This document shows positions 26,201 through 46,913 of a DNA stretch of 64,000 nucleotides, piece by piece. This DNA is from a virus (lineage: Duplodnaviria > Heunggongvirae > Uroviricota > Caudoviricetes): the IMG/VR virus record IMGVR_UViG_3300045538_000409, one strand, 5' to 3'. The notes beneath the pieces were generated by a model that made no database searches, was not told the origin of the DNA, and saw nothing but the letters and a program-made list of their open reading frames with translations. The position numbers were made by a program, and so were the translations under genes. How positions within the stretch are numbered: position 1 is the first letter of the stretch; each line of letters starts with the position of its first letter.

Positions 26201-26220
26201 TCTAAGATATTTATAGATGT

Positions 26221-27018: not shown

Positions 27019-28337
27019 TGAAAGGATTAATTAAAACGCTTTTAAGGGAATATTTTCTAAATGAAAATAACGAATCAATTAATTATGAAATAGAACATTT
27101 GGGCAGCCATAATGGACAACATGATTATGAATTAGGTATGTATATTAATGGTGATATAGTTGGTTTAGCTCAATATACACTATATAATAATGAATTAACC
27201 ATTTCAGATATATTCGTTAGACCTGAAATGCGAAGAAGGGGTTATGGTTCTAGAATTATAGCATTTTTAAAAAAAGAATATCCAGAATACCAATATCAAC
27301 CTTCAATGAAAACTGATTTAGGTTCTAAATTCATACATAAAGACGTAAATCCGTATCAAGATTTAAACGAAGACACTTTTAATGTCTTAGAGTCTGAATT
27401 ACAAGAAGAAGTTACTTCTTCATTTACAGCCTATCATGGTTCACCAACTAAGATAGAAAGTTTTGTTGATGAATTTGTTGGTGGAAAAGACGCTACAGAC
27501 CAAAATGGACCTGGTATATATTTTACAACTAAGGTTGAAGAAACATATGGCTACGCTGAACGGGGTTATGTTTATCATGTTGAAATCGCTAATAGTAAAT
27601 TCTTAGATAGTATAGAACGTTCAGAAGGTTATTTAAGAAAATATAGAGGTGACGTTAAGAAACTAATTATGATGGCACCCGACTGGGAGATGGATGCTCA
27701 AAACTGGGCTGTAAACCCAAAAGAAGGACTTAATATGATGGTGGATAATTTCGTACAATACAATTCAAATGAGAAAGACGTATTCCTACAAGTTTGGATT
27801 GATGTATATAGGGGTATTGAAGTGCAGTTTGTAAGAAACATGGTCAAATTAGGATATGGTGGGTTGCTTATTAATGGTGGTTTTAATAGTGATAATGGTG
27901 GTGACCATATAGTAGTATATAACCCAGGGCTAATAACAATTAGTAAAGTAGAGTTTTTTGGTGATAAATCAATGAACGAACAAATAATATTACCTATAAT
28001 GAAAAACATGGAAAAAGCGCCAAATATGGGGAGTAAATTCGGTCAAGACGTAGAACCAAGTGGCACATATGTGTCTCATGATGATAGGAAAAATAAAACG
28101 CCAATAGATAATTATAAGTTAGGAAAAGTAACATTCAATAACCCACTTATAATAGATATAACTGATGATACAATCATTACTTATAAAAACAAATTAAGTC
28201 AACAATTTAAAGCTAAAGGTAAAAACCTTACTAATAAATTAATGGAAAAAGGTTATGATGGGTTAATTACTAGATGGCCCGATGGTAATTATAATGAACT
28301 GATATTATTCCCAAATAGTAAATATTACTTAAGTTAA
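27018..28337 (+). CDS. GNAT N-acetyltransferase domain fused to PARP/diphtheria-toxin-like (H-Y-E class) ADP-ribosyltransferase-like domain; CTS-like N-terminus
   Basis: GNAT motif A at VRPEMRRRGYGSRIIAFL. Downstream, FTAYHGSPTKIESF...GPGIYFTT parallels the PARP1 NAD-binding signature WHGSRTTNFAGIL...GKGIYFAD. N-terminus MKGLIKTLLRE. Confidence 0.55.
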   Translation: MKGLIKTLLREYFLNENNESINYEIEHLGSHNGQHDYELGMYINGDIVGLAQYTLYNNELTISDIFVRPEMRRRGYGSRIIAFLKKEYPEYQYQPSMKTDLGSKFIHKDVNPYQDLNEDTFNVLESELQEEVTSSFTAYHGSPTKIESFVDEFVGGKDATDQNGPGIYFTTKVEETYGYAERGYVYHVEIANSKFLDSIERSEGYLRKYRGDVKKLIMMAPDWEMDAQNWAVNPKEGLNMMVDNFVQYNSNEKDVFLQVWIDVYRGIEVQFVRNMVKLGYGGLLINGGFNSDNGGDHIVVYNPGLITISKVEFFGDKSMNEQIILPIMKNMEKAPNMGSKFGQDVEPSGTYVSHDDRKNKTPIDNYKLGKVTFNNPLIIDITDDTIITYKNKLSQQFKAKGKNLTNKLMEKGYDGLITRWPDGNYNELILFPNSKYYLS

Positions 28338-28374
28338 TAGTAAAGCTAATTAATTTGTATATTTAAAAACTTTT

Positions 28375-28385
28375 TACTATATTTG
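28375..28385 (+). promoter_or_regulatory. promoter motif TACTATATTTG upstream of CCA-adding enzyme gene
   Basis: 5 nt before the ATG at 28391. A second TTTGTATATTT lies at 28354. Confidence 0.4.
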
Positions 28386-28390
28386 TAATT

Positions 28391-29557
28391 ATGAAACAAA
28401 TAATTAAAAAAATGGTTAAACAAAAGTTACTTAAAGAAGAGAGGATAAAGTTAAATATACCTATTCCTGATGACATAATACAAATTAAAGATATATTCGT
28501 CAATAACGGATATAAGTTATATATTGTGGGTGGTTCTGTACGTGACTCATTACTTAACAAACCTATTAAGGATTACGATTTAGCTACTGACGCAACACCA
28601 GACCAAGTTGAAGATATAATGAATAAATCTGGTTTTAAAACACTACCAACTGGTAAAGCATTTGGGGTTATAAATGTGTTTACAGATACTAATGAATACG
28701 AAGTGGCCACGCTTAGGTCAGATGGGGAATATACAGATTCAAGGAGACCTGACTCAGTAACATTCAGCGATATAAACTCAGATGCAGCCAGAAGAGACCT
28801 GACATGTAACGCTTTATATTATGATATAGATACCAAGGAAGTCATTGACTTAGTTGGTGGTATAAATGACCTTAGAAAAGGTATAATACGAACTGTAGGT
28901 AAACCAGAAGATAGATTTAAAGAGGATAAGTTAAGAATTCTAAGAAGTATTCGTTTTGCGGGTAGATTTGGTTCAGAATTGGACCCCAACATTGATAAAG
29001 TATTAAGTAATGACAGTAGTCTTAAAGGTATATCACCTGAAAGGATTAGAGATGAGTTCTTAAAGACGATTAAAAGTGCTAAGAGCATACAACAAGTATT
29101 TTTATTAATTGATAAATATAAATTATGGAATGAAATTTTTCCAGGTATTGATATCAATAAGAAGTTTGTTGAATCCAAAGACCCAATTATTGTTATCAGT
29201 ACCCTTATATTAGGTAACGAACCATCGAACTTAAGTAAGATTTTAAATAAATTAACATATTCAATAAGTGAAAATAAAGCTATTACTTTTTTAATTTCAT
29301 TTAGTACATTTAACGATATAAACAATGTGTACAAGATGAAGAAACTATTTAACGCTTCAAATGTTACTAATGAACAATTAAGAGAATTTAATAATATTAA
29401 TAAAATCTTACCAAGTAATGTCGTTGACACATTTATTAATTTCCAACTTAGCGTTACTGGCGACCAAGTTCAAAGTGAATTAGGAATTAAACCAGGACCA
29501 GAAATGGGTAAAACTATTGAAAAAATGGAAATTGATAACTTTAATAAACTTTTATAA
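28391..29557 (+). CDS. cca: tRNA nucleotidyltransferase (CCA-adding enzyme), with N-terminal CTS-like extension
   Basis: Head-domain motifs LYIVGGSVRD, DYDLATDA, RRD(L)TCNALYYD and ATLRSDGEYTDSRRPD. N-terminus MKQIIKKMVKQKLLKE precedes the catalytic core. Confidence 0.8.
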   Translation: MKQIIKKMVKQKLLKEERIKLNIPIPDDIIQIKDIFVNNGYKLYIVGGSVRDSLLNKPIKDYDLATDATPDQVEDIMNKSGFKTLPTGKAFGVINVFTDTNEYEVATLRSDGEYTDSRRPDSVTFSDINSDAARRDLTCNALYYDIDTKEVIDLVGGINDLRKGIIRTVGKPEDRFKEDKLRILRSIRFAGRFGSELDPNIDKVLSNDSSLKGISPERIRDEFLKTIKSAKSIQQVFLLIDKYKLWNEIFPGIDINKKFVESKDPIIVISTLILGNEPSNLSKILNKLTYSISENKAITFLISFSTFNDINNVYKMKKLFNASNVTNEQLREFNNINKILPSNVVDTFINFQLSVTGDQVQSELGIKPGPEMGKTIEKMEIDNFNKLL

Positions 29558-29577
29558 TATTTATATTTAAAAAACAT

Positions 29578-30258
29578 ATGAGAAGATTTGATAAAAATTT
29601 AAACATACAAAAAGCTAACCTATTAGCCGAACAAAGATACCTTGAGTCAAAGGAATTGTTAAAGGAAGAATCAATGAATTTAATAAAAGAAGAACAATTT
29701 ACAGATTTATTCAAATTCATAGCCCAAGACCCCAAGAAAATGACACAAGGTAGTGCTTATTATGTGGCAGACCTAAATTCTTCAATGAATAAAAACATTG
29801 TTGATGATGATGGTAATAAAATACCTAATCCTATGTACGGTAAATTATATAAACACACTAGATTCTTATTTAAATGGGAAGATACCTACTTAAAAGCTAT
29901 GGACAGAGTAGACCCAGAACATATCGCTGGTAAAAGAAGTGGTAATTACGAGAAAGTACAAGGTTATGATGTATTAGAAACAGGTAAAAGCGGTCTATAT
30001 TTACCAATAATACCAACTGGTAGTGAATATCAATATGTTGTCGATAACAATGGCAATATGGAGGTAATCGACAAAGAAACTGTTAAGAAATACTTAAGAC
30101 CAATGTCACCATCAACTATTTCCGCAACAGAAGCTGGTAAACCACTATTTAGACCACTTATTATTGATAAGGTGGCTAAAATAACTGGTGGTGGTAATGT
30201 TTGGAAAAATCCTAACTTTAAAGGTGTATATATGGGACCAGGTTCAACTACTAATTAA
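29578..30258 (+). CDS. hypothetical protein
   Basis: 226-aa ORF. Confidence 0.45.
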   Translation: MRRFDKNLNIQKANLLAEQRYLESKELLKEESMNLIKEEQFTDLFKFIAQDPKKMTQGSAYYVADLNSSMNKNIVDDDGNKIPNPMYGKLYKHTRFLFKWEDTYLKAMDRVDPEHIAGKRSGNYEKVQGYDVLETGKSGLYLPIIPTGSEYQYVVDNNGNMEVIDKETVKKYLRPMSPSTISATEAGKPLFRPLIIDKVAKITGGGNVWKNPNFKGVYMGPGSTTN

Positions 30259-30521
30259 TATTAAATTATTTACCTGAATATCAACTAGTTATAAATTAAT
30301 TAAAAAATAATTTTAAAATTTACTTGTATTATTAAACTTTTTATCATATATTTGTATATATATATTAATTAAAGAAGTAACAAAAAAAATGAAAACAATT
30401 AACATACATATGATTTGGAATAGTAATTCGAGACGTATTAGTCTAGACGAATCAGGTATGTTTATTCAAAAATTCATGTAAATAATTATAACAGAATAAA
30501 AAAGAATAATAGAAAAGATAC

Positions 30522-30556
30522 AAAGCCTGAATTTATAAATTCAGGCTTTTTTTATT
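30522..30556 (+). terminator. intrinsic terminator
   Basis: AGCCTGAATTTA-TA-AATTCAGGCTTTTTTT. Confidence 0.75.
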
Positions 30557-30565
30557 TAATAAATT

Positions 30566-30754
30566 ATGGAAAATAACGAAAAGAAAATTAAAATACTTGG
30601 TACCGAAAATCTAAACGAATTAGAAAAGGGTGCAACTAATCTATACACTAAGTATAGCAAGATTGCTGAAGCATTAGGTTTGTATGGAAAAATTGGTTTT
30701 AAGAAGGAAAATGATAAAATTATCTTTTACGTAAGTAAGGATAATGGAGAGTGA
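30566..30754 (+). CDS. hypothetical small protein
   Basis: 62-aa ORF. Its stop lies inside an 8-bp closing stem of a structured 3' element. Confidence 0.4.
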   Translation: MENNEKKIKILGTENLNELEKGATNLYTKYSKIAEALGLYGKIGFKKENDKIIFYVSKDNGE

Positions 30755-30841
30755 ACTGGTCAGGGCACCAGGCTTCCCTGCTAAGGAATGCGTGCATTAT
30801 TGCATTGGCTTCGATTGCTACACTCTCCGCTTTTTTTTTTG
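30746..30841 (+). other. structured 3' element closed by 8-bp helix GGAGAGTG/CACTCTCC + U-tract
   Basis: The helix arms are at 30746-53 and 30821-28. Internal hairpins are CTGGT-CAGGGC-ACCAG and TGCA-TTAT-TGCA. The stop codon of ORF 30566..30754 lies inside the 5' arm. Confidence 0.45.
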
Positions 30842-30868
30842 TAAAATTACTAAATATTAAAAAAAAAT

Positions 30869-30879
30869 TAGTATATTTG
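30869..30879 (+). promoter_or_regulatory. promoter motif TAGTATATTTG upstream of Pnk-2H gene
   Basis: Exact recurrent 11-mer. Confidence 0.45.
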
Positions 30880-30894
30880 TAAAAAATAAAATAA

Positions 30895-31842
30895 ATGAAG
30901 AGTAATATAAGAAAAATCTTAAGGGAAAATGTTAATACTAATGTATTAGGTATAACGATTACAAGACCAAATCAAGAATTGATTGTAATGGTAGGAATTC
31001 CTGGTAGTGGAAAATCTACAAAAGCTAAAGAATTGGTTGGTAATGGTCAAATTTTTTCAACTGATGATAGAATTGAATCACAAGGTGATTATTTAGAGTT
31101 TTTTAACAAAATGATTAATTCTAAGGATTTCACACCATTAAGTAATATGCACAACTTGAATTTCACAATGGCAAAAAAAGCCATGAAGACAGGTACAACT
31201 CCAGTAATTATTGATAACACTAATTTATCACCATCTGAATCTAAGAAATATGTTGAAGAAGCCTTATTATTAGGATATGCTGATGATAATATTAAATTTA
31301 TTGAAATTGGTACTGGTGGTTTATCGGCTGAAGAATTGGCAAATAGAAACACTCATGGTGTTCCGCTGGACAAAATTCAATCAATGATTCAAAAATATAA
31401 TTCACATAAACCAATGACTCTTAATAAAGTTTTAAATTCAAAATCAATTGATAATAAAAAAACTAACTTAATTGCTAGTTTAGTATTAGATGATACATCG
31501 CACGATAAATTAATTAAACTAGTAAAGGATTACATCCCTAAAGGTTGGAAAGTTTTTGCACATCATATGACTATTAATTTTGGGAATGGGTTACCTGAAA
31601 ATCTTAAGAGTGATTTAGGTAAAGTTAAATCTATTACTGCAACTGAGATTGGCGTTTCTGATATGGCTATAGCGGTAAGGGTTGAAGGATATCATTCGGA
31701 TAACAAAATTCCTCATATTACTATAGCGGTTAATGTGGCAGAAGGTGGTCGCCCTGTAATGTCTAATAATATTACTAATTGGAGCAAATTAGAAAATAAA
31801 ATTAATCTATCTGGAGTCATTTCTGAAGAAAAATTGAATTAA
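30895..31842 (+). CDS. polynucleotide 5'-kinase (T4 Pnk-like) fused to 2H-family cyclic phosphodiesterase; CTS-like N-terminus
   Basis: P-loop IVMVGIPGSGKST. Blocks VIIDNTNLSPSE and HGVPLDKIQSMIQKY are collinear with T4 Pnk (GCPGSGKST, VIISDTNLNPERR, VPIDVLRSMYKSM). The C-terminus has two H-x-T motifs (HHMTI, HITIA), a 2H phosphoesterase signature. N-terminus MKSNIRKILRE. Confidence 0.75.
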   Translation: MKSNIRKILRENVNTNVLGITITRPNQELIVMVGIPGSGKSTKAKELVGNGQIFSTDDRIESQGDYLEFFNKMINSKDFTPLSNMHNLNFTMAKKAMKTGTTPVIIDNTNLSPSESKKYVEEALLLGYADDNIKFIEIGTGGLSAEELANRNTHGVPLDKIQSMIQKYNSHKPMTLNKVLNSKSIDNKKTNLIASLVLDDTSHDKLIKLVKDYIPKGWKVFAHHMTINFGNGLPENLKSDLGKVKSITATEIGVSDMAIAVRVEGYHSDNKIPHITIAVNVAEGGRPVMSNNITNWSKLENKINLSGVISEEKLN

Positions 31843-31914
31843 ATTTTAAATATAATTTGGTTTACTGAAATATTCTTATTACATTTGTCTAATAATTAAA
31901 AAAACAAATAAATT

Positions 31915-32391
31915 ATGAATATTTTTGTATTAGATGAAGATGTAAAAAAATGTGCTGAGTATCATTTAGATAAACATTCCACTAAAATGTGTGTGGAATA
32001 TAGTCAAATTTTATGTAGCGTTCATCACATGACCGCAGAAGTTACTACAGAAGTACCTTATAGGTTAACGCATAAAAACCACCCTTGTTCAATATGGGCT
32101 AGAGAATGTATCGAGAATTATATATGGTTATGTGATTTAGGTTTAGAATTATGTAAAGAATACACACATAGATATGATAAGCGTCATAAGAGTCAAGATG
32201 TTATTGAATGGTGTATTATTAACAAACCAAATCTACCGACACATAATAAACTCACACCGTTTGCGTTAGCCATGCCAGATGAATATAAGTGTGATAATGC
32301 TATATCATCGTATAGAAAGTACTATATAATGGATAAAGGACACTTAGCAAATTGGACAAAAAGAAAAAAACCATTTTGGTTTGCAATTTAA
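31915..32391 (+). CDS. hypothetical Cys/His-rich protein
   Basis: 158-aa ORF with HPCSIWARECIENYIWLC...C; family not recognized. Confidence 0.45.
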   Translation: MNIFVLDEDVKKCAEYHLDKHSTKMCVEYSQILCSVHHMTAEVTTEVPYRLTHKNHPCSIWARECIENYIWLCDLGLELCKEYTHRYDKRHKSQDVIEWCIINKPNLPTHNKLTPFALAMPDEYKCDNAISSYRKYYIMDKGHLANWTKRKKPFWFAI

Positions 32392-32400
32392 ATAAAAAAG

Positions 32401-32411
32401 TAGTATATTTG
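32401..32411 (+). promoter_or_regulatory. promoter motif TAGTATATTTG
   Basis: Exact recurrent 11-mer; ATG at 32416. Confidence 0.45.
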
Positions 32412-32415
32412 TAAT

Positions 32416-32685
32416 ATGAAAGAAAATAAAACTAACGAAAGACGTAAAGACGTCTCTGACAAACTGCTAAAAATAGCAGATTCCCTACGAACGGAAGGGA
32501 TTGAAAATAACGACATGAATTTAGAACTTGGTGCCAATATGATTATGTTAATTGGTGGAATTCTAACTAGTGACGAAGATTTAAAAACATTATCCGAGTT
32601 ATGTGCGATGTATTCTGCTAAAAAAATATTAGACAATATGAGCAATTTTGAAGGGATGGATTTAAATGATATTTTCGAAGAATAA
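32416..32685 (+). CDS. hypothetical acidic protein
   Basis: 89-aa ORF. Confidence 0.4.
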   Translation: MKENKTNERRKDVSDKLLKIADSLRTEGIENNDMNLELGANMIMLIGGILTSDEDLKTLSELCAMYSAKKILDNMSNFEGMDLNDIFEE

Positions 32686-32828
32686 TAAATTTTTTTTAAC
32701 TTTAAATAATTAAAACATGAAAGGAGCATTAGGACTTATAGTATTAGCAGCGGTTATTTATGTATTTTGGATAACTGGGGTAATAATCAAAAGAACAAGA
32801 AATAAAAACAAAGATAAAAAAGATTAAT

Positions 32829-33179
32829 ATGAGTTGCGATTATTTAAAAACATTTGATATAATATCAAAGTCACTATTCTTAATAGGTGCTTTATTTATT
32901 ATAGTTAAACCATTAAATATTTGGTTTTATGAAAAAATTGGTTTCATATTAAAAGATAGTAAACATTCAAGGTATTTATTACCCACCTTTGGTTTTGAGG
33001 CATATTATAGTAAAGAATCGTCTATACTTAGAGCTGCGTTTTTGCTTATATACTGGACAATGCAAACAATTTTTTTATTTATAATAACAATTACAATAGG
33101 TCTTATATGGCCTTTATTGATAGTATTTGTATTAGTATGGGGGTTTATATACATCACCGATAAATTTAAAAAAGATTAG
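32829..33179 (+). CDS. membrane protein, paralog of next gene
   Basis: LFLIGALFIIVKPLNIWFYEKIGFILKDS matches IFFSIGTLFIIVKPLNIWFYKKIGLDINKD in ORF 33182. Confidence 0.45.
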   Translation: MSCDYLKTFDIISKSLFLIGALFIIVKPLNIWFYEKIGFILKDSKHSRYLLPTFGFEAYYSKESSILRAAFLLIYWTMQTIFLFIITITIGLIWPLLIVFVLVWGFIYITDKFKKD

Positions 33180-33181
33180 AT

Positions 33182-33490
33182 ATGTATTTTGGCATTGGAT
33201 TTACGTTAGGAATTATTTTTTTCTCTATTGGTACATTATTTATTATCGTTAAACCTTTAAATATTTGGTTTTATAAAAAAATAGGGTTAGACATCAATAA
33301 AGATACACACTATGATTTAATAGATATTGCACATGATAGTCATTTTAGTGAAGAAAATAAATTAGGTAATTTTATAGTGTATTTTTTTATACATATCGTT
33401 GCATTATTCTTAATTACAGTATTGGTAATATTATTATACCCATTAATTGTATTAAGCATCTTTGGTTATGTTATTTACAGATTATTTTAA
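33182..33490 (+). CDS. membrane protein, tandem paralog
   Basis: See the previous entry. Confidence 0.45.
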   Translation: MYFGIGFTLGIIFFSIGTLFIIVKPLNIWFYKKIGLDINKDTHYDLIDIAHDSHFSEENKLGNFIVYFFIHIVALFLITVLVILLYPLIVLSIFGYVIYRLF

Positions 33491-33496
33491 AAAGTT

Positions 33497-33898
33497 ATGA
33501 AGGTTAGAACAGAAAATGACGAGGTAATAGAATGGAAAAATAAAGATGGTCTATTACATAGAGAAGATGGTCCAGCAAGAGAATGGTTAGATGGAGATAA
33601 ATCATGGTGGTTAAACGGAAAATACCATAGAGAAGATGGACCCGCTATTGAATGTGCAAATGGAGATAAATACTGGTGCTTAAATGGAGAATTTCATAGA
33701 GAAGACGGACCTGCTTTTGAAGAGCCTAGTGGGTATAAGGCATGGTGGATAAATGGAAAACTCCATAGAGAAGATGGACCCGCAAGAGAATGGGCAAATG
33801 GGAATAAAGAATGGTGGTTAAATGGAGAAGAGTTAACTGAACAAGAATTTAATGACCTAATATTAAAGAAAAGATTACAAAGAATAATTAATTTTTAA
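33497..33898 (+). CDS. tandem 23-residue repeat protein (MORN-variant-like HREDGPAxEWxNGxKxWWLNGK repeats)
   Basis: At least 4.5 consecutive copies of the HREDGPA(R/I/F)E(W/C/E)xNGxK(S/Y/A/E)WW(L/I)NG(K/E) repeat. Confidence 0.55.
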   Translation: MKVRTENDEVIEWKNKDGLLHREDGPAREWLDGDKSWWLNGKYHREDGPAIECANGDKYWCLNGEFHREDGPAFEEPSGYKAWWINGKLHREDGPAREWANGNKEWWLNGEELTEQEFNDLILKKRLQRIINF

Positions 33899-33911
33899 AA
33901 ACAAATAAGAC

Positions 33912-34169
33912 ATGGTAATTTTATATTTTTTAGTAACATTTGTTATATTTTTCTTCATGTATAAGAAATACTGGCCTTTAATCAATCGTAAAATGAAGAT
34001 ACATGGCTATTATAATTGGATAGATTGCTCAGAGTTTTGGATAATGATTATTATCCCATTATTTTGGGTAATTTCACTACCATTATATTTTTTATGGTTA
34101 TTTTTGGATTATATATACGAAAGATATATCGTAAATAAGGATAAAACGGGGAACGCTGAAAACCGTTAA
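33912..34169 (+). CDS. small membrane protein
   Basis: 85-aa ORF with two TM helices. Confidence 0.4.
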   Translation: MVILYFLVTFVIFFFMYKKYWPLINRKMKIHGYYNWIDCSEFWIMIIIPLFWVISLPLYFLWLFLDYIYERYIVNKDKTGNAENR

Positions 34170-34207
34170 TAGAGTAAGCAAATAGCAATTTAATTTAAAT
34201 TTTAAAA

Positions 34208-35008
34208 ATGAAAAAAGTAATTTATTTAGCAATGGCAATCTTTGGGTTATCATTGACATCATGCGAAACAGTATCTCCAGGACACAAGGGTGTGGAAATT
34301 TCTTGGGGTGGTGAGACAAATTTACAAACAACTTATAATGAAGGTATGGCAACTGGTCTACACTGGATTTGGGATGAAATGGTAGAGTACGATGTTAGAC
34401 AAAAAACGCTAGTTGAAAAGTTTGAGTTTAACGACAACAACAACATGACAACTAATGTGGAAATATCGTTAGATTATAACTTAAATCCTGATAAGGTAAC
34501 TTTGTTACATACTCAGATTAGTGATATTGAGACAAAAATCCTCAAGACACTTAAGTCAGCAGGTAAGGAAGTTGTTCCACAATATTCGGCAGTTGAATTG
34601 AATATTACTAAGAGGCAAGAAGCGGAAGATAAACTTAACGCAATCCTTGCTAGGGAATTACCAGAATTCTATGTTCAATTAGCGAGAGTTCAAATGACTG
34701 ATGTTGACATCCCACCAGCAGTAGCTAAATTAGCTGAAGAAACAGCAGTTCAACTTGGTAGAAATGAATTAGCAACTAAGAAAGAAGCTGAACAAAAGTC
34801 ATTAGCTAAGGCTAAGGTAGCAACAGCACAAGGTAATTTTGACGCTGGTATTCTAGATGCTAAGACTAAGGAGTTATTGTCTAAACCAGAATTACTTAAG
34901 TTGAAAGAATTAGAGGTTGATATGGAATACGCTAAAAAAGGTGTTTCAAAATATGGAACTAACAATGTCTTTGGTGGTAATGGTGCAACTGTCATTAAAG
35001 GTTTATAA
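34208..35008 (+). CDS. SPFH/band-7 (prohibitin/HflKC-like) domain lipoprotein
   Basis: Lipobox LSLTSC, then VSPGHKGVEISWGG...VEYDVRQKT, typical of the SPFH domain start. Confidence 0.6.
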   Translation: MKKVIYLAMAIFGLSLTSCETVSPGHKGVEISWGGETNLQTTYNEGMATGLHWIWDEMVEYDVRQKTLVEKFEFNDNNNMTTNVEISLDYNLNPDKVTLLHTQISDIETKILKTLKSAGKEVVPQYSAVELNITKRQEAEDKLNAILARELPEFYVQLARVQMTDVDIPPAVAKLAEETAVQLGRNELATKKEAEQKSLAKAKVATAQGNFDAGILDAKTKELLSKPELLKLKELEVDMEYAKKGVSKYGTNNVFGGNGATVIKGL

Positions 35009-35868
35009 TGAAAATTATTAGATATCCAGATGGTTCTTCTTACGTAAAGTTAGAAGAACCAATATCTAAAGAAATAATATTTAGATTAAATACTTACGAA
35101 GATTTGTGGCATTTAAACCAAATTGTTGATGTTTATAATTATAACAATATAGTACCTACCATAACTATACCTAATCTTATAGATGCTCAAGCTGATAGAA
35201 GGTTTAATGATAATGAAAGTAGTGGCTTGAAATTAGTATGTAAATTTTTAAACAATTTAAATGCTAATTTTAAAATATTTCATCCACATAATCCTGAAGC
35301 GGTTGAAGCTTTAATGGATAACGTTAAAATTATTGAGAATCATTCATTTATTAAAGAAGTATTATCTGAAATATATTGTGATAATAATAGTATACTTAGA
35401 GACCTTGGGTTATTTTACCATACTAAATCAGAACTTTACGATAATTTAATTTTATTTTCAAGTGATTCTGGTGGATTCAAACCTCTTATGAAACTTTGTG
35501 ATAAAATTAATTGGAAAGGTGAAACTTTTTCAGCTAGTAAATCTCGTAAATATGAAAATGGTGAAACTAAATTAATACAACAAGTTAATCGTGAAGATTT
35601 TGGTGGTAAAGACATTCTTATTATCGATGACATTTGTGTATATGGAAAAACTTTTAAAGGTTTATATAAATTACTTAAAGAACGTAATTGTGGTAAATTA
35701 TATTTAGCTGTTAGCCATTTGACTATAGAACATCACCCACAAGATAGTGTATTTGAATATTTCGATAAGGTTTTTTGTACGAATAGTAAGTATGACGAAT
35801 ATACTGCTGAAAATGAACTTAGAGAAATGTTAATACCGCAAAATTTAGAAATTATAAAATTATTTTAA
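35008..35868 (+). CDS. PRPP-synthetase-like / type I phosphoribosyltransferase-domain protein
   Basis: PRPP-binding loop DILIIDDICVYGKTF and an N-terminal Prs-like region. Start overlaps the upstream stop (ATGA). Confidence 0.5.
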   Translation: MKIIRYPDGSSYVKLEEPISKEIIFRLNTYEDLWHLNQIVDVYNYNNIVPTITIPNLIDAQADRRFNDNESSGLKLVCKFLNNLNANFKIFHPHNPEAVEALMDNVKIIENHSFIKEVLSEIYCDNNSILRDLGLFYHTKSELYDNLILFSSDSGGFKPLMKLCDKINWKGETFSASKSRKYENGETKLIQQVNREDFGGKDILIIDDICVYGKTFKGLYKLLKERNCGKLYLAVSHLTIEHHPQDSVFEYFDKVFCTNSKYDEYTAENELREMLIPQNLEIIKLF

Positions 35869-35870
35869 TT

Positions 35871-38579
35871 ATGCAAAAATTAAATCAAACGTTTAAAATT
35901 AACCCTTTGTATGAAGCAGATGGGTATAAAGTAGCTCATCATAAAATGTTAGCTCCTGGAACTACTAAATTATATGGTACTTGGATACCTAGAAGCTTAA
36001 AGTATATGCCTAGCGGTATTGATAAGATTATGTCAGCAGGACAACAATTAGTTGTTAGACATTTACATAGTACTTTTCAAGAAAATTTCTTTGATAAAGA
36101 TTCTAATGTTGCTATACAGTTTGCAAATGATATGTCAGCTTACTTAGGCATGGATTATGATGGAACACATTTTTTAGATTTGTATAAGTTAGGTTACTTA
36201 CCAATTAGAGTTAAATCTTTACCAGAAGGTATTTTCACACAACCTAATATTCCACACATGACTTTTGTTAATACTGTTGATGGTTATGCTTGGTTAACTT
36301 TATTTTTAGAGACTTATATTTCTAAATTAGCTTGGCAAATGCCTACTGTAGCTACTATAGGTCATAAGTTTAAAGAAAATGCTAAAGCATGGGTAAATTA
36401 TACTGATAAAGAAAATTTATGGTTAGCTGATTTTATGTGTCATGATTTTCATAGTAGAGGTGGAAATCCATTTACATCAATAGCTTGTGGTTTAGGGTTT
36501 TCTTTATCAAATAAAGGTAGTGATACACTTAATATTATCCCCGCTAGTAGATATTATTACGATGAAGCTGAAGATAGTATGCCTATTTTTTCAGTTAATG
36601 CTAGTGAACATTCAGTTTCTACAACTAAAATTTTTACAGTAGGTGAGCAACAAATGATAGCAGATTGGTTAAAGTTATTTCCTACTGGTATTTTAAGTGT
36701 TGTTAGCGATACTTTTTCTCTTTGGGATTGTATTGAATACTTTAAAGAGCTTAAAGATGAAATTATGGGTAGAGATGGTAAGCTAGTGTGTAGACCAGAT
36801 TGTCTAGATGATAAATCTCAAATATTAACACCTAAAGGATGGAAATATTTTAAAGATTTAACAGAAAATGATTTAGTGGCACAAGTAAAAAAAGATGGTA
36901 TTTATGAATTTGTAAAACCTTTAAAAATAATTAACGAACCTTATGAAGGTGATATGTATGAAATAAGAGATTTTCATGGAAAAATAGATTTAGTAGTTAC
37001 TCCAAATCATAGATTGGTTTCTTATAAAAATTCAGATAATTCTATCTCTATAAAAGAAGCTTCTGATTACAAACAAAATTATTGGGAATATAAAAAATTA
37101 AGAAGTCCTAAATCTCAAAGTAAAGGTAGAGAGTTAACAGCCTATGAAAGATTTTTAATTGCCTTACAGGCTGATGGTTGTATTAAATATGTAAATAAAG
37201 ATTTAAGTACAAGAATAGAATTTAACTTTAAAAAAGAAAGAAAACACGATAGATTACTAGAAATACTTAAAAATACAGATTTAGAATATAACGTTTATTT
37301 TACTAAATCAAGACAAGGTCAATCTACATTTAGTGTGTTAATACCTTATAATAGAATGGTATCTAAAACATTTGATTGGGTAGATACTTCTAATTTAGAT
37401 AGTTTGTGGGCGGAAGAATTTATAGAAGAACTAAAATATTGGGATTCTTCTATTAGAAATGATGGTAGATTTAAGTATGATACTACAATTAAAGAAAATA
37501 TTGATGTTGTAGAACTTGTAGCAATTGCTGCGGGAAAAGGTGTTTATATTTCTGAGTCAGAAGATAATAGAAAAAAACATTTTTCTAATGTATATACTGC
37601 TCATATTTTAGATAATCCTTATGTTGGTGGACAGTCTATTACTAAAAACAAAATACATTATAAAGGAACTATACATTGTGTAAAAGTACCAACAGGTATG
37701 ATTTTAGTAAAAAGAAATCAAGGTGTTTGTGTTACTGGCAATAGTGGAGACCCTGTAGATATTATTTGTGGAGTTTCAACTAAATATCGAGATTTATCAG
37801 CATACCTTCCTGAAGGAGAAGTTTTACCTGAATATTTCGAAGAAGTTTTATTAGAAGAAGTTAGGGAAGATACCCCGCATGGAAAACGTGGTGTTAGAGA
37901 ATATGAAAATGTCTATACCGTAAGAGGTAAACTGTATAAGGCTAAAATACACAACATATCTTGGAATAGACATGATAAACAATACTATTTCATCGATATG
38001 TGGGAAAAAGCAGAAATTACAATCGAAGAATTAGAATGGAAACCTTCTGATAAAGGTGTAATAGAACTTCTTTGGGATATATTTGGCGGTACTGTAAATG
38101 AAGAAGGTTATAAAGTATTAGACCCACACATTGGGGCTATTTATGGTGACAGTATTAATCTTGAAAGACAAATTCAAATCTATGAAAGACTTGAAGCTAA
38201 AGGATTTGCTGCTAGTAATATTGTTTTAGGTGTAGGTAGCTATACTATGGTTATGCTTACGAGAGATTCAGCTGGGTATGCAGCTAAAGGTAGTTGGTTT
38301 GAAGTTAAAGAGGAAACAGGTAATTTGTTATTAACCGACCCACCACAACCCGAATACAAGGTAACATCATATAACATCTACAAAGACCCAGTAACTGATG
38401 GTGGTAGTAAAAAATCACTTAAGGGTTTGATGCAAGTTAAATTAGTAGATAATGAATATGTGGTAAATCAAGAATGCACTTGGGAACAAGAAGAAGATTC
38501 TGAATTAAAAACCATCTATGAAAATGGTGTGTTTAAAAATCAAACTACTTTAAGTGAAATTAGAAGCAGAGTTAGTTAA
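35871..38579 (+). CDS. nadV: nicotinamide phosphoribosyltransferase (NAMPT/NadV) interrupted by a 314-aa LAGLIDADG intein
   Basis: N-extein NPLYEADGYKVAHHKMLAPGTTKLY matches NAMPT [24 protein letters not shown]. C-extein GAIYGDSINL...VLGVGSYTMVMLTRD matches VIQGDGVDIN...AFGSGGGLLQKLTRD. The extein junction RPD|SGDP is the conserved active-site RPDSG. Confidence 0.85.
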   Translation: MQKLNQTFKINPLYEADGYKVAHHKMLAPGTTKLYGTWIPRSLKYMPSGIDKIMSAGQQLVVRHLHSTFQENFFDKDSNVAIQFANDMSAYLGMDYDGTHFLDLYKLGYLPIRVKSLPEGIFTQPNIPHMTFVNTVDGYAWLTLFLETYISKLAWQMPTVATIGHKFKENAKAWVNYTDKENLWLADFMCHDFHSRGGNPFTSIACGLGFSLSNKGSDTLNIIPASRYYYDEAEDSMPIFSVNASEHSVSTTKIFTVGEQQMIADWLKLFPTGILSVVSDTFSLWDCIEYFKELKDEIMGRDGKLVCRPDCLDDKSQILTPKGWKYFKDLTENDLVAQVKKDGIYEFVKPLKIINEPYEGDMYEIRDFHGKIDLVVTPNHRLVSYKNSDNSISIKEASDYKQNYWEYKKLRSPKSQSKGRELTAYERFLIALQADGCIKYVNKDLSTRIEFNFKKERKHDRLLEILKNTDLEYNVYFTKSRQGQSTFSVLIPYNRMVSKTFDWVDTSNLDSLWAEEFIEELKYWDSSIRNDGRFKYDTTIKENIDVVELVAIAAGKGVYISESEDNRKKHFSNVYTAHILDNPYVGGQSITKNKIHYKGTIHCVKVPTGMILVKRNQGVCVTGNSGDPVDIICGVSTKYRDLSAYLPEGEVLPEYFEEVLLEEVREDTPHGKRGVREYENVYTVRGKLYKAKIHNISWNRHDKQYYFIDMWEKAEITIEELEWKPSDKGVIELLWDIFGGTVNEEGYKVLDPHIGAIYGDSINLERQIQIYERLEAKGFAASNIVLGVGSYTMVMLTRDSAGYAAKGSWFEVKEETGNLLLTDPPQPEYKVTSYNIYKDPVTDGGSKKSLKGLMQVKLVDNEYVVNQECTWEQEEDSELKTIYENGVFKNQTTLSEIRSRVS
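36801..37742 (+). mobile_element. intein with LAGLIDADG homing-endonuclease domain inserted in nadV
   Basis: Begins with Cys1 (CLDDKSQ), has block B TPNH, LAGLIDADG-like LIALQADGC, and ends ...VCVTGN followed by Ser+1. Removing it restores the contiguous NAMPT motif RPD-SGDP. Confidence 0.75.
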
Positions 38580-38583
38580 ATAT

Positions 38584-38973
38584 ATGAGATTCATATTAAT
38601 ATTATTTATATCCTTAACCCTACAACAAGATAAGTTAGTAGGGTTTTGGATTATATCCACAAATGATTTAATAATTGAATGTTATGAGAAAAACGATAAA
38701 TATTATGGAAAAATACATTGGTTTAAAGACAATAATCCAGACAAGAAAAAATATTCAGAGAACGGTGTAATTAAATCAAAGTGGAATGGGTTTGTAGTCA
38801 TGTCAGACTTCACTTATATTGGTGATAGATTATCTGGTAAGATATATGACGTTAAAAATGGTCAAGAATATGACGCTTACATTGAAATAAATGGTGATAG
38901 GATAAAAGTAATTACTTATGTTTTTTTACCTATATTTGGTAAAGAAATGGAATTTAGAAGATATAAAAAATAA
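38584..38973 (+). CDS. hypothetical secreted protein
   Basis: Track ORF 38554..38973. The internal start MRFILILF gives a signal peptide and avoids overlap with nadV. Confidence 0.4.
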   Translation: MRFILILFISLTLQQDKLVGFWIISTNDLIIECYEKNDKYYGKIHWFKDNNPDKKKYSENGVIKSKWNGFVVMSDFTYIGDRLSGKIYDVKNGQEYDAYIEINGDRIKVITYVFLPIFGKEMEFRRYKK

Positions 38974-38979
38974 AAAAAA

Positions 38980-40095
38980 ATGGAACTAAACATCGTTAAA
39001 CATATAAAAAAATATGGTCTAGAAAAGGCCATTATTGATTTTGATTTAATATGCAAGGAGAATGGCAATCTTATATTACTTAAATACAATCAAATATCCT
39101 CTCCAATGGACAAAATAGAGGTTCAAGAATCTAGAGGTTTAATATTAGAAAAAGGTACATATAAGGTTATTTCAATGGCCTTTATGAAATTTTTCAATCA
39201 TGGTGAAACTAACGCAGCAAATATTGACTGGGACTCAGCGCATGTTTTAGATAAATTAGATGGGTCGCTACTTTCTTTATATCATTATAATGACACTTGG
39301 AATGTTTGTACAACAGGAACCATTAATGGTGAAGGTGAAGTTAATAATAAATATGGAACTACATTTAGAGATTTGTTTTGGGGTACAATAAATAGTAAAT
39401 ATAATTTCAATATTAATAAATTAAATAGTGACTATATATATGCTTTTGAATTAACGACACCTTATAATATTGTTGTTAAACCACATAGTGAATCATCCGC
39501 AACACTTCTTACAATTAGAAATAGAGAAAATCTTAAAGAAATACCTTATAATGAGTTAATTCCAGTTGCCAATGAATTAGGTGTACCTTTAGTTAAAAGG
39601 TATGATTTTAACATTAAAAATGTTGATGTTTTAATTAAGACTTTTGAAAATATGCCATGGTCAGAGGAAGGTTATATTGTTTTAGATGGTAACTTTAGTA
39701 GAATTAAGATAAAAAATCCAGCATATGTTGCGGTTCATTTATTAAAAAATAGAACATCAGAACATTCAATAATGGAAATTGTTAAGTCTAATGAAATTGA
39801 AGAGTTTGCATCAACATTTATAGAGAGAAGAGAAGAGATTTATAATCTTCATAAAAACTATAATGAATTAATTAATAAATTAGAAAATATATGGAAATTG
39901 CTTGAACCATTAAAACCAAAAGACATATCTCCAGAAGAAAAAAAGAGGTATGCTATGGAAGTCTTTAGAGTATGTGAAGAAAATGATATTAAGATGTTTA
40001 CAGGACTTTATTTTGGTTTAAACGATGGTAAAATTGAATCTATTGGTGAATATATGATGAATTATGATAATAAAAGATTATATCAAATTTTATGA
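38980..40095 (+). CDS. ATP-dependent RNA ligase (Rnl family)
   Basis: Nucleotidyltransferase motif I KLDGS, motif IV EGYIVLDG and motif V RIKIKNPAY. Confidence 0.75.
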   Translation: MELNIVKHIKKYGLEKAIIDFDLICKENGNLILLKYNQISSPMDKIEVQESRGLILEKGTYKVISMAFMKFFNHGETNAANIDWDSAHVLDKLDGSLLSLYHYNDTWNVCTTGTINGEGEVNNKYGTTFRDLFWGTINSKYNFNINKLNSDYIYAFELTTPYNIVVKPHSESSATLLTIRNRENLKEIPYNELIPVANELGVPLVKRYDFNIKNVDVLIKTFENMPWSEEGYIVLDGNFSRIKIKNPAYVAVHLLKNRTSEHSIMEIVKSNEIEEFASTFIERREEIYNLHKNYNELINKLENIWKLLEPLKPKDISPEEKKRYAMEVFRVCEENDIKMFTGLYFGLNDGKIESIGEYMMNYDNKRLYQIL

Positions 40096-40916
40096 ACCAA
40101 ATATATAAAATTTTCAAACAATATAAATATAAATTATTATTAATTTATTTATTTATGTTAGTAACTGAGTTAGCTATAGTTACACAACCATATTTACTTG
40201 GTAAAAGTATTGATGGTTTAATATCTGGAGATACATCGTGGACCTTATTACTCTTTATCTCATTTGTAACATCTCAATTTTTTATGTATAAAAGAATGGT
40301 ATATGATACTAAGATATATAAAAAAATATATAATGATATTGTTATTGATTTCTTGAAAAAATCAAAAGATGATTATTCAATAAAAATAGCAAGAACTGAT
40401 ATGGCTAATGATATTGTTGGTGTGCTAGAAGGATATGTTCATTATTATATATCAATTATAATTACTATTGTAGGTTCAATAGGTTTTATATACTTAGAAA
40501 ATTGGAGAGTAGGTTTATTAGTTACTACATCATTTATATTCATAGTCCTAAGTGTTTTATTGTTCTATAAGAAAATAAGACAAAGTATTAACATTAGAAA
40601 TAATAATTATGAAAATAAAGTTAAGGCTATACAATCAGGTTACGAAAAATCAGTATCCTTCTTACATCGACAACGCAAAATAGAAATTATTGAATCAAAC
40701 CTACAAGGTAAAAACTGGTTCTCCGTTGGTATAATAAAATCTATATTTTTAATATTATCTATTATAACACTAATTTTTACTAGTGAAAATGTTACAGCAG
40801 GTAGTGTAATTACAATATATACATATATTAATAATTTCTTAATATCACTAATGTCCATACCAGTAGCATTTGAAATGTACTCAAGATTAAGTGATATAAT
40901 TAAAAGACTTTGTTAG
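40092..40916 (+). CDS. polytopic membrane protein
   Basis: 274-aa ORF with about 6 TM helices. Confidence 0.45.
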   Translation: MNQIYKIFKQYKYKLLLIYLFMLVTELAIVTQPYLLGKSIDGLISGDTSWTLLLFISFVTSQFFMYKRMVYDTKIYKKIYNDIVIDFLKKSKDDYSIKIARTDMANDIVGVLEGYVHYYISIIITIVGSIGFIYLENWRVGLLVTTSFIFIVLSVLLFYKKIRQSINIRNNNYENKVKAIQSGYEKSVSFLHRQRKIEIIESNLQGKNWFSVGIIKSIFLILSIITLIFTSENVTAGSVITIYTYINNFLISLMSIPVAFEMYSRLSDIIKRLC

Positions 40917-41652
40917 TGTTAAACATCTCTTTACCTAATAAACCTTCTCTGTACATTCTGCGTTTAAGATTTTTAATCCAATTATTTCTTTCACTGTACG
41001 GTAGTTCATTGTAAATAACGTATAATGTTGGGGACATATGGATTAATTCGTCAAATGATAATAAATCCCACAAGTCCTCATTTTTCCGTTTTAACTGTAT
41101 AATGTTATGTATTTGTGCTTGTAATTCTAAATGATGTGTATTTATATGTTTAATTGGTTTAGACATATTGAAAAATTTTTCAATATGTCTATTATGAAAT
41201 GAATCATCTAACCAATGTGCTAATTCATGATGAATACTACCTTTAATTTTTTCCTCAGTGAATTCCTGCATAAAGCTTTTACCTAGAGAAACTGGTAAGT
41301 TTTCTTTTGCTTGTTTTAAATTTCCATTATAATCAAAGGCGTAGTTAAAAGCATTAAAATTAATTGATATTGATATTAATTGTTCAGACGGTCTATAAAA
41401 ATTATTACCATAATTTATTTTTATTTTACAAGGGTTAATTTTATTTGCCTTTAAAGTCAATTCATCAGTAAATACATCGGTGGTTGATATATACTGTTTA
41501 AACATATCTTTTCTAACAAACCCAGTGCTATTAATTTCATTAATATTGTTTTTGAAATATGCGTCATAAATATAATCTACGTCATGATTAATATTCATAA
41601 CCTTTTCTGTTAAAAGTGATTCCCTAACTAATTTTTTAATTAATGATTTCAT
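40900..41652 (-). CDS. zincin-like metallopeptidase-motif protein (HExxH) with CTS-like N-terminus (minus strand)
   Basis: Minus-strand ORF MKSLIKKLVRESL...SIHHELAHWLDD, with an HExxH motif. Confidence 0.5.
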   Translation of the reverse strand: MKSLIKKLVRESLLTEKVMNINHDVDYIYDAYFKNNINEINSTGFVRKDMFKQYISTTDVFTDELTLKANKINPCKIKINYGNNFYRPSEQLISISINFNAFNYAFDYNGNLKQAKENLPVSLGKSFMQEFTEEKIKGSIHHELAHWLDDSFHNRHIEKFFNMSKPIKHINTHHLELQAQIHNIIQLKRKNEDLWDLLSFDELIHMSPTLYVIYNELPYSERNNWIKNLKRRMYREGLLGKEMFNTNKVF

Positions 41653-42242: not shown

Positions 42243-42986
42243 ATGGAAGAAATTAAGAAAACTGGTTATGAATGGTCACTTGAATCTAACCATAGGTTAT
42301 TAGACTTACACAATTTTAGAATAGGTTATAATAAACCTAGTATATCTGGTGAAGTTGCATATTTCGAAAAAGAAATATGTAAAAGTGAATATTTAACAGC
42401 TATAGAAAATCTAGATATAAAAGAAAAGTCCACACCAAGAAAGACTAATAATTATCTTGAATGGCGTATGTATGGATTCGTACCGTATAATATTAGCTCT
42501 ATACAATCAGGAATTCAGTTTGGACATGGAGTGGTTGAATACGGTCAAAATATTTCAGGTTTAGGTAAAATTGAAGATAATTACAATAATTGGGCTAGGA
42601 GAGATAAAACATTTATTATTCTTAACGGTGGTACAACTAACGAAAATAAGAATAATAAATTCTACGGGACCATGCAACAATATAGAGATTTATTATTGGA
42701 AAATGAAATATTAATTGCTCAATTTCATGAACCAGATTTAAATAATGCTTTAACCTCAATTTGTTTCCTAGTGGATGAGAGGGTTTGGAACAGAACACTA
42801 TATCCTGATTATGTTAATATCCCATTTCCTTGGAATGGTAGAAGAAACTATGACCCATCAGAAAGGGAAATAGAAAGGTGGAAAGAAGATAATGAAAAAC
42901 ATAAAGAAGCTTGGATTGATAAAATTGGCGGGATAAAGAATGCATTTTTACGTGATTTCTTACGTGATAAAAAATTAGCTAATTAA
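42243..42986 (+). CDS. hypothetical protein
   Basis: 247-aa ORF. Confidence 0.45.
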   Translation: MEEIKKTGYEWSLESNHRLLDLHNFRIGYNKPSISGEVAYFEKEICKSEYLTAIENLDIKEKSTPRKTNNYLEWRMYGFVPYNISSIQSGIQFGHGVVEYGQNISGLGKIEDNYNNWARRDKTFIILNGGTTNENKNNKFYGTMQQYRDLLLENEILIAQFHEPDLNNALTSICFLVDERVWNRTLYPDYVNIPFPWNGRRNYDPSEREIERWKEDNEKHKEAWIDKIGGIKNAFLRDFLRDKKLAN

Positions 42987-46908: not shown

Positions 46909-46913
46909 CACAC

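Follow-up and report, generated by a model that had tools for sequence, protein, structure and literature searches.

The window (the whole stretch of DNA that was analysed, 64,000 nucleotides (nt) of the IMG/VR record IMGVR_UViG_3300045538_000409) is part of a large, low-GC, uncultivated tailed phage. The G+C content of this 64-kb window is 25-32% and nearly all of its genes are on the + strand. Positions are those of the window, and features are on the + strand unless indicated. The gene at 30895-31842 encodes a predicted bifunctional RNA end-healing enzyme, hereafter the kinase-2H protein, in which a polynucleotide 5'-OH kinase is fused to a 2H cyclic phosphodiesterase (CPDase). An earlier reading of the letters of this DNA (the original prediction) had placed an RNA healing-and-sealing toolkit at 28391-40095. 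The five open reading frames (ORFs) that it named are all present: a CCA-adding enzyme (28391-29557), the kinase-2H protein (30895-31842), an RNA ligase (38980-40095), an HAD phosphatase (23778-24308) and a second 2H enzyme (43031-43585). Profile searches recovered the predicted domains for the CCA, kinase, 2H, Rnl1 and HAD ORFs. The span itself was retained only in part: the named ORFs are real, but unrelated genes are also found inside it (SPFH, a NAD-salvage pair, DUF2147 and an endonuclease-V-like gene). The repair set extends from ~23.8 kb to 47.4 kb, and a Ro/TROVE-like gene at 13.3 kb falls outside. Components that had been overlooked are RlaP, cRec, a second Pol-beta nucleotidyltransferase, a GNAT + ART-PolyVal protein and the Ro/TROVE-like protein.

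No match was found by megablast of the span 28391-40095 against 50,697 GenBank phage records, or by tblastn of a large ORF neighbouring the kinase-2H gene against GenBank phages. The DNA of the window was also recovered on a metagenomic contig. The closest relatives of single window genes belong to uncultured 'huge phage' genomes (~35-45% protein identity).

The kinase-2H protein and its candidate partner genes

The kinase-2H protein (315 amino acids (aa); predicted from profiles, motifs and fold) includes a short N-terminal leader shared with other window proteins (nt 30895-30927; see below), a polynucleotide 5'-OH kinase domain (~nt 30958-31449) and a compact 2H CPDase domain of ~125 aa (~nt 31462-31839). 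The kinase domain matches Pfam AAA_33 (1.9e-11), and the top PDB sequence match of residues 28-169 is T4 Pnk (1.8e-4). The P-loop (GIPGSGKS34-41), D57 and the lid motif (R151-N-T-H154-GVP) are invariant among 24 homologues; D57 and the lid motif are the counterparts of the general base and lid residues of the CthPnk/Trl1 kinases. The motifs H224-M-T and H274-I-T of the C-terminal domain are likewise invariant across the 24 homologues. PF08302 (CPD domain of fungal tRNA ligases) is matched by 18 of the 18 kinase-2H family members tested (best E 1.7e-7).

In the AlphaFold model (mean predicted local distance difference test, pLDDT, 87), each HxT opens a beta-strand. Foldseek matches of the N-terminal half are CthPnk, Pnkp1, T4 Pnkp and PNKP; those of the C-terminal half are CNPase/RICH catalytic domains (E ~1e-4, probability 1.0). 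A PDB profile search with the 2H domain gave only Myb matches, which are spurious and due to a 'PxxWxxIAxH' stretch; the fold search was used instead. The fusion of a kinase and a 2H domain in this phage protein is real. It had been predicted that the kinase is T4-Pnk-like, that the phosphatase is replaced by a 2H CPDase with two HxT motifs and that the domain order is that of fungal/plant tRNA-ligase healing (kinase, then 2H CPD, as in Trl1 and CNPase). These claims stand, the predicted fold of the C-terminus being of the 2H type.

Full-length fold matches to the model in BFVD are limited to proteins of giant eukaryotic viruses: a 292-aa kinase-CPD-like protein of Sylvanvirus (E 8.6e-13), a 771-aa protein of Cafeteria roenbergensis virus (CroV) and a 765-aa 'RNA ligase' of Marseillevirus. 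Phage entries of BFVD align with the kinase half only. One BFVD match, gp264 of Bacillus phage G, was considered as a phage kinase-2H protein and rejected: it consists of a kinase and an HD domain.

The kinase-2H family is common in metagenomic phages (872 metagenomic cluster representatives; 293 contigs in IMG/VR, the longest of ~370 kb). No homologue of the protein was found by tblastn in the 50,697 GenBank phage records. A scan of 185,579 species genomes gave a single full-length relative. It is carried by a 170-kb contig (PLXT01000115.1, locus L208) binned as a Methanobacterium metagenome-assembled genome from palsa peat, which is probably a mis-binned contig of a large phage.

The gene at 38980-40095 encodes a predicted ATP-dependent RNA ligase of the T4 Rnl1 family (371 aa, without leader), in agreement with the KxDG RNA ligase originally predicted there. 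It matches PF09511 above the cut-off (4.8e-14) and carries motifs I (K92LDG), III (FE156), IV (EGY230) and V (K243IK). Its sole significant PDB sequence matches are T4 Rnl1 structures, with residues 47-334 aligned to residues 50-332 of T4 Rnl1, i.e. over both domains (1.5e-10). The score against the NCBIfam T4 RnlA family is 66.6, for an equivalog cut-off of 242.

Gene order was compared in 87 fetched kinase-2H loci (86 besides that of the window's own phage). Downstream sequence reaches 6 kb or more in 68 of them, and 59 of these carry an Rnl1 homologue downstream of the kinase-2H gene and on the same strand, at a distance of 0.4-8 kb (median gap 1.5 kb). In the window, the insertion of NAD-salvage and other genes widens the gap to 7.1 kb. 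On the upstream side, 41 of 47 related loci have a CCA-adding gene, and in ~14 related loci a GNAT-ART homologue immediately precedes the kinase-2H gene. Synteny alone is weak evidence because the phages compared are interrelated (50-70% identity).

The CCA ORF (28391-29557) encodes a predicted class II CCA-adding enzyme (388 aa) without an HD domain and with a ~35-aa N-terminal extension carrying a weak leader. The original claim of a CCA-adding enzyme is borne out by PolyA_pol (Pfam, 1.4e-39), phrog_2244 (1.8e-60) and the head motifs (GGSVRD47, DYD61, RRD134, EDKLR178). On motif and domain criteria it is a class II CCA-adding-type enzyme, an assignment that does not separate CCA addition from A-adding/poly(A) activity. 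It scores 225 bits against the NCBIfam CCA tRNA nucleotidyltransferase family (equivalog cut-off 290). The separate HAD phosphatase (23778-24308; 176 aa, with leader) is also as claimed: it is predicted to be a stand-alone SAK-type enzyme from PF10307 (HAD_SAK_1, 3.1e-13; 50.4 bits for a cut-off of 25.6), an intact DxDxT motif (DFDGT24) and TGR94. A PDB sequence search of this HAD protein gave no match.

A profile of the 2H module was searched against 1.84 billion representatives and found 1835 proteins, 1038 of them at E <= 1e-10. Fusions were counted in the best 149 of the 1835, with some overlap between categories. The module is fused to a CCA-adding domain in 37 of these, to a close homologue of the window's SAK-HAD in 11 (best E 1.8e-62), to a Pnk kinase in 10 and to the ART part of the window's GNAT-ART protein in 6. 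The layouts include 2H-CCA-HAD (~700-800 aa), HAD-2H, CCA-ART-2H and ART-CCA-2H, and proteins of 1.4-2.3 thousand aa. Of the 11 HAD fusions, 10 retain DxDxT; of the 38 CCA domain matches, 33 retain GGxVRD. The CCA domain of two giant fusion proteins is supported by a PDB sequence search (~1e-29 to 1e-30). Examples of fusions are P0317, P0318, P0339, P0396, P0288, P0375 and P0403; these proteins of 0.7-2.3 thousand aa carry long N-terminal regions without assigned identity. Since HAD, ART, CCA and kinase-2H, which are neighbours in the window (nt 23778-31842), are fused elsewhere, the fusions are strong evidence for joint action on tRNA. Fusion of the 2H module to CCA and HAD and not to ligases indicates that the repair logic concerns, at least partly, the tRNA 3' end.

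Other candidate components are found on both sides of these genes. The second 2H enzyme (43031-43585; 184 aa) had been called LigT-like. It is probably a divergent, stand-alone member of the 2H superfamily, with two Hx[TS] motifs (H64xT and H141xS, both invariant; model pLDDT 89), but not demonstrably a LigT: no LigT_PEase or 2_5_RNA_ligase2 match of its family was found in Pfam/NCBIfam. Its top Foldseek matches are all 2H proteins (Usb1, LigT, AtCPDase, Acb1 and a poxvirus cGAMP phosphodiesterase) and are weak (E 0.017 or worse, template-modelling score ~0.3-0.4). The 2H-SAK Pfam profile is matched weakly by 10 of 27 family members. This protein might just as well be an RNase or a phosphodiesterase of signal nucleotides. 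In related loci that have both genes, its gene is immediately preceded by one encoding a 247-aa 'hydrolase' (phrog_3668; 42243-42986 in the window), for which no Pfam, NCBIfam or PDB match was found.

The gene at 43982-45157 encodes a predicted Pol-beta nucleotidyltransferase of the RlaP family (391 aa; PF10127, 1.9e-21, 77.3 bits for a cut-off of 23) with a Pol-beta GS...DED motif, GSQAHGTSLPTSDED. RlaP adds 1-2 nucleotides to damaged RNAs and restores aminoacylation of repaired tRNA (PMC12776372). A cRec (cyclic-phosphate-processing receiver) domain protein (PF20274, 1.9e-24) is encoded at 47010-47390, directly after a tRNA-Leu gene; a role of cRec in RNA repair kits is a prediction of PMC7824862. 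The second Pol-beta nucleotidyltransferase (26221-27018; 265 aa, GS...DID motif, with leader) is an uncertain member of the set. The GNAT + ART-PolyVal protein (27018-28337; 439 aa, with leader), whose ART part is the one fused to CCA/2H elsewhere, has only weak acetyltransferase (GNAT) matches in a PDB sequence search. The Ro/TROVE-like RNA-binding protein (DUF2828 + DUF7788; phrog_850, 1.7e-151) is encoded at 13262-14698.

The many tRNAs and the tmRNA that had been claimed were called by ARAGORN (11 tRNAs and one tmRNA); 10 of the 11 tRNAs reach the Rfam gathering score. Ten tRNA genes are clustered at 46628-53761 (Cys, Leu x3, Asp, Pro, Gly, Thr, Gln, Lys; ARAGORN and Rfam). The tRNA-Pro call (52977-53053) is below the Rfam gathering score, and tRNA-Met (22429-22516; 88 nt) is borderline in Rfam (29.7 bits, threshold 29). 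The tmRNA (20033-20404; ARAGORN; tag peptide EVYKGEVALA) matches RF00023 over its full length with 31.9 bits, below the gathering score of 47. No PrrC-like protein or other tRNase was found among the window ORFs scanned.

Several neighbouring features are also recorded. A 226-aa protein without detectable family (29578-30258) is kept upstream of the kinase-2H gene; its homologues include 20 related ORFs and occur in loci L002, L004 and L006; a PDB sequence search gave no match. It could be an unrecognised repair component. Directly 3' of the kinase-2H gene, a T4 endonuclease-V-like pyrimidine-dimer glycosylase (Pyr_excise; phrog_624, 4.9e-59) is encoded at 31915-32391; of 9 related loci with such a gene, 8 have it at this place. 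The NAD-salvage pair comprises a Prs-like gene (35008-35868) followed by a 902-aa NAMPT/NAPRTase-like ORF (35871-38579), and resembles the NARP1 NAD-reconstitution pair. The second ORF is apparently split by an intein-like insert of ~314 aa within the conserved RPD|SGDP motif. The insert ('CLDDKSQ' to 'VCVTGN', then 'S') contains a LAGLIDADG-like 'LIALQADGCI', identified by eye; a PDB sequence search with it gave no match. Just 5' of the SPFH/Band_7 gene at 34208, positions 34145-34180 match the DUF805b RNA motif (RF02914) with 40 bits, which exceeds the gathering score. Further genes encode a full-length DnaJ (16566-17639), a ClpP-like protease (18833-19570), an FKBP-type isomerase (20741-21187) and a YqeY-like protein (54923-55324).

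A predicted tRNA-repair set and its alternatives

It is considered moderately probable that the phage encodes a dispersed tRNA-repair set, with healing by the kinase-2H and HAD proteins, sealing by Rnl1, and rebuilding by RlaP and, at the 3' end, by the CCA-adding enzyme. The analysis shows which domains are present, that their catalytic motifs are intact, and how the genes are arranged and fused; the scheme that follows for the substrates, the chemistry of the products, the sequence of steps and the role of the set is inferred from this. The kinase domain (T4/Clostridium-type P-loop) would phosphorylate the 5'-OH, and the 2H domain of the same protein would open the cyclic phosphate. By analogy with the CPDs of Trl1 and plant tRNA ligases, which open RNA>p to leave 3'-OH,2'-PO4 ends and lack monoesterase activity (PMC3592404 Table 1), the product would be 3'-OH,2'-PO4. 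The SAK-HAD may then strip the 2'- or 3'-phosphate monoester; the HAD-family phosphatase of T4 removes both (PMC3592404 Table 1). The Rnl1-type ligase would seal breaks in the anticodon loop (T4 Rnl1, unlike the Trl1 ligase, needs no 2'-PO4: PMC11404444; PMC1920235), and RlaP would refill a lost nucleotide. The HD-less CCA-adding enzyme is predicted to rebuild damaged tRNA 3' ends. In E. coli Cca, whose NCBIfam family name is 'multifunctional CCA addition/repair protein', the HD domain has CPDase and phosphatase activity (Yakunin 2004, as cited in PMC2190708); here the 2H and HAD proteins may provide these functions in trans. The phage tRNAs, the tmRNA, cRec and the Ro/TROVE-like protein would serve the same goal, i.e. 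translation kept running.

The following points weigh against this repair set. The PF08302 score of the window's own kinase-2H protein is 16.3-18.4 bits, under the curated cut-off of 23 bits. A kinase-less variant (142 aa, leader and 2H in frame) takes the same syntenic position on Tara Oceans contigs reaching 270 kb, from which it follows that the 2H module works without the kinase. (Examples of this variant are P0241 and positions 6001-6429 of loci L206 and L207; it is found in 63 blocks of the collection.) The 2H module is stand-alone (<210 aa) in 70 of the best 149 module proteins and fused to a ligase or to RlaP in none of them. Few of the 87 loci, only 4 with that of the window's phage included, have a HAD homologue at 10 kb or less from the kinase-2H gene. 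The order of the kinase-2H and Rnl1 genes could be inherited rather than selected. No Tpt1/KptA (PF01885) was found in the window ORFs scanned, the phage genome being incomplete. Lastly, the 2H domains of phages and polyvalent proteins may be RNases or signal-nucleotide phosphodiesterases (Iyer et al. 2017, PMC5512222).

Four other explanations are ranked below the repair set. The first, judged unlikely, limits repair to the tRNA 3' end: 2H, then HAD, then CCA, with Rnl1 a neighbour by synteny only. The kinase would then be fused for a different purpose, e.g. to phosphorylate 5'-OH fragments and so mark them for decay. The fusion counts fit it (CCA 37, SAK-HAD 11, ligase 0 of 149), as do the lack, in the window's CCA enzyme, of the HD domain that bears the CPDase/phosphatase in E. 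coli Cca, and the presence of the leader on the HAD, CCA and kinase-2H proteins, with none on 73 ligases. However, the kinase is of the polynucleotide-kinase type with its catalytic Asp and lid Arg conserved, a 5'-kinase without a ligase has no obvious purpose, and Rnl1 is found downstream of kinase-2H in 59 of 68 loci.

The recurrent fusion of the 2H module to CCA-adding enzymes and to RNA-repair-type HAD phosphatases, and the tRNA-ligase CPD profile matched by all 18 kinase-2H members, argue against a second explanation, which is quite unlikely. According to it, the 2H domains (the C-terminus of the kinase-2H protein and/or the stand-alone protein at 43031) are counter-defence proteins, either phosphodiesterases of immune-signal/2'-5' nucleotides, like Acb1 or viral 2',5'-PDEs, or Usb1-like RNases. 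It follows the prediction of Iyer et al. 2017 for such 2H domains and is consistent with the abundance of kinase-less and stand-alone 2H forms. Usb1, Acb1 and the poxvirus cGAMP phosphodiesterase are among the fold matches of the protein at 43031, and Acb1 is found at rank 39 among the BFVD matches of the kinase-2H model. The latter protein is nevertheless fused to a polynucleotide kinase and syntenic with Rnl1.

A yeast-type pathway is very unlikely. In it, the 2'-PO4 end would be ligated directly and the junction 2'-phosphate removed by a NAD-dependent transferase, a Tpt1/KptA-like role that the ART-PolyVal protein at 27018 might fill. The fold of Tpt1 is that of an ART; the ART part is fused to CCA/2H in 6 of 149 module proteins and the gene is directly upstream of kinase-2H in ~14 loci. 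The NAMPT-like and Prs-like genes sit between the healing and the sealing genes, the Arabidopsis CPDase is among the fold matches of the protein at 43031, and in Bacillus phage G a KptA gene lies amid NAD genes near the Pnk-ligase pair. Against this, no ORF scanned matches PF01885, and the ligase is T4 Rnl1-like, a type that in T4 needs no 2'-PO4, and not Trl1-like. An HAD phosphatase able to remove the phosphate directly is present, and ART-PolyVal falls in a protein-modifying ART clade (PMC5512222).

The absence of any coordinated system, i.e. auxiliary genes acquired independently and brought together in an accessory region of one phage lineage, would fit genes scattered over >20 kb among unrelated genes and synteny data drawn from a single lineage, but is highly improbable given the independent fusions of 2H to CCA, HAD and ART in many architectures and the same component set in unrelated jumbo phages (PMC7824862).

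If the biochemistry holds, the repair set would represent a third phage design of RNA end healing, in which Pnk is joined to a 2H CPD and the HAD is a separate protein. It would combine the T4 ('phage') pathway with that of Trl1 ('yeast'), which have been treated as distinct, and it raises the question of how a 2'-phosphate is handled by an Rnl1-type system. The fusions of 2H to CCA and HAD point to tRNA 3'-end damage as a major phage-host battleground. With >1800 relatives, the compact ~125-aa 2H module would be convenient for enzymology.

The N-terminal leader

Seven otherwise unrelated proteins of the window begin with a leader of 11-16 residues, MKxLIKxLLRE(G/S/N)L. They are the HAD phosphatase (23778; MKEIIKKIIRE), a 631-aa protein with no assigned function (24305; MKNLIKRLLRE), the second Pol-beta nucleotidyltransferase (26221; MKNLIKRLLRE), the GNAT-ART protein (27018; MKGLIKTLLRE), the CCA-adding enzyme, in which the leader is weaker (28391; MKQIIKKMVKQ), the kinase-2H protein (30895; MKSNIRKILRE) and, on the - strand, a 250-aa protein with no assigned function (40900-41652; MKSLIKKLVRE). 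Weaker matches are found at 3754 and 5834. The strict pattern has 6 matches in the window, all at residue 2 and none internal, for 0.0003 expected.

In the kinase-2H family, K2, I5, R10 and E11 are invariant, L9-R10-E11 is conserved and residues 12-24 are variable. The leader of the kinase-2H model is a detached, low-confidence helix, and it is retained in the kinase-less 2H variant. A scan of IMG/VR gave at least 102 distinct complete ORFs with the leader, in at least 38 unrelated clusters from contigs of this phage lineage. Most of those listed have no Pfam match, and a few match GNAT, ART-PolyVal, GP88, DUF4116 or protein-kinase profiles; position 13, which is outside the search pattern, is hydrophobic in 97 of the 102. 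In related loci the leader is carried by 50 of 76 kinase-2H proteins and 17 of 36 CCA-adding enzymes, and by none of 73 Rnl1 ligases, 15 stand-alone 2H proteins and 17 'hydrolases'. Homologues of the CCA-adding enzyme and of the second nucleotidyltransferase in other (huge) phages have no leader. Judged from these sequences, the leader is a portable, family-specific tag. A shared promoter or ribosome-binding-site cassette was rejected as its origin because the DNA similarity among copies sets in right at the ATG and synonymous changes distinguish one copy from another.

In T4, the capsid-targeting sequence (CTS) has ~10 residues, starts with MK, is processed after (L/I)-x-E and is found on diverse internal proteins that are packaged and ejected; Alt, an ADP-ribosyltransferase, is packaged behind a short, cleaved N-terminal propeptide (PMC9026906; PMC3012670). 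ART, GNAT, Pol-beta nucleotidyltransferase, kinase and 2H domains occur in 'polyvalent proteins' that are predicted to be injected (PMC5512222). Like the T4 CTS, the leader is a short MK... peptide ending in (L/I)-x-E and is found on unrelated, fast-evolving accessory proteins, including an ART. Unlike it, the leader reads MKxLIKxLLRE (T4: MKTYQEFIAE) and occurs on at least 38 protein families including RNA repair enzymes. By this analogy, the leader might tentatively be proposed as a CTS-like capsid-targeting and processing signal, so that tRNA-repair enzymes would be packaged and injected with the DNA; this is possible rather than probable. Neither a head gene nor a gp21-type prohead protease was identified in the window, and the sole protease seen is the ClpP-like one. 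Alternatively, that protease (18833-19570) may read the leader as an N-terminal degron, or the leader may be a helix for localisation or assembly, or an element acting in recombination or translation.

Should the leader be a packaging signal, the lineage would load a large, modular set of enzymes into its virions, and tRNA repair could start before any phage gene is expressed. The tagged proteins would be the unfused equivalent of the polyvalent proteins joining 2H, CCA, HAD and ART. The leader would also give a sequence handle on the injected proteome of an uncultivated lineage and, possibly, a tool for loading cargo proteins into capsids.

Comparison with known systems

As in T4 (Pnkp + Rnl1), the 5'-kinase is homologous to T4 Pnk, the ligase is of the Rnl1 family (aligned over both domains), healing and sealing enzymes are separate and the presumed purpose is the reversal of host tRNase damage. 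A split ligase had been described as unusual for a phage; a separate ligase is in fact the phage norm, and is unusual only by comparison with Trl1. Unlike T4 Pnkp, which has a DxDxT HAD phosphatase at that place, the window's enzyme has a metal-independent 2H domain fused to the kinase, and the HAD is encoded by a separate gene and belongs to the SAK family. With 2H instead of HAD on the kinase, the expected intermediate would be a 2'-PO4, compared with a 3'-PO4 in T4 (PMC3592404 Table 1).

A P-loop kinase with a 2H CPD (two HxT motifs) on its C-terminal side is also found in Trl1/AtRNL, the lancelet PNK/CPDase, CNPase and giant-virus Trl1-like proteins. The predicted fold of the phage 2H domain is CNPase-like, and its family matches the tRNA-ligase CPD profile, the window's own protein scoring under the cut-off. 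The lancelet PNK/CPDase is also separate from its ligase (PMC5434554). Compared with Trl1/AtRNL, the phage protein is far smaller (315 aa, with a 2H domain of ~125 aa), carries an N-terminal leader and has a kinase that resembles bacterial/T4 Pnk, not the Trl1 kinase. The phage ligase is T4 Rnl1-type and encoded by a separate gene 7.1 kb downstream, whereas the Trl1 ligase is 2'-PO4-dependent and part of the same polypeptide; in addition, no Tpt1 was found in the window.

CCA addition, CPDase and phosphatase are combined in E. coli Cca, and the fused 2H-CCA-HAD proteins follow the same logic. The hydrolytic functions would come here from 2H and HAD, not from HD, and are encoded in the window by separate genes.

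Bacillus phage G (JN638751, 193353-206236; locus L205) is also a jumbo phage in which a Pnk fusion (gp264) adjoins an RNA ligase (gp265), with a KptA-like protein (gp280) and NAD salvage nearby. Its gp264 is of the HD-Pnk type (kinase + HD), not kinase + 2H.

The toolkit concept is already described for jumbo phages. The kits in the available part of PMC7824862 have in common with the window Rnl1/2, PNK, 2H, a stand-alone SAK-HAD, RlaP, CCA, cRec, Ro/TROVE, tRNAs and NAD salvage. In that part, PNK is usually fused to HAD and 2H is separate. The kinase-2H variant differs from those kits: in the window and its relatives, the kinase and the 2H domain form a single protein.

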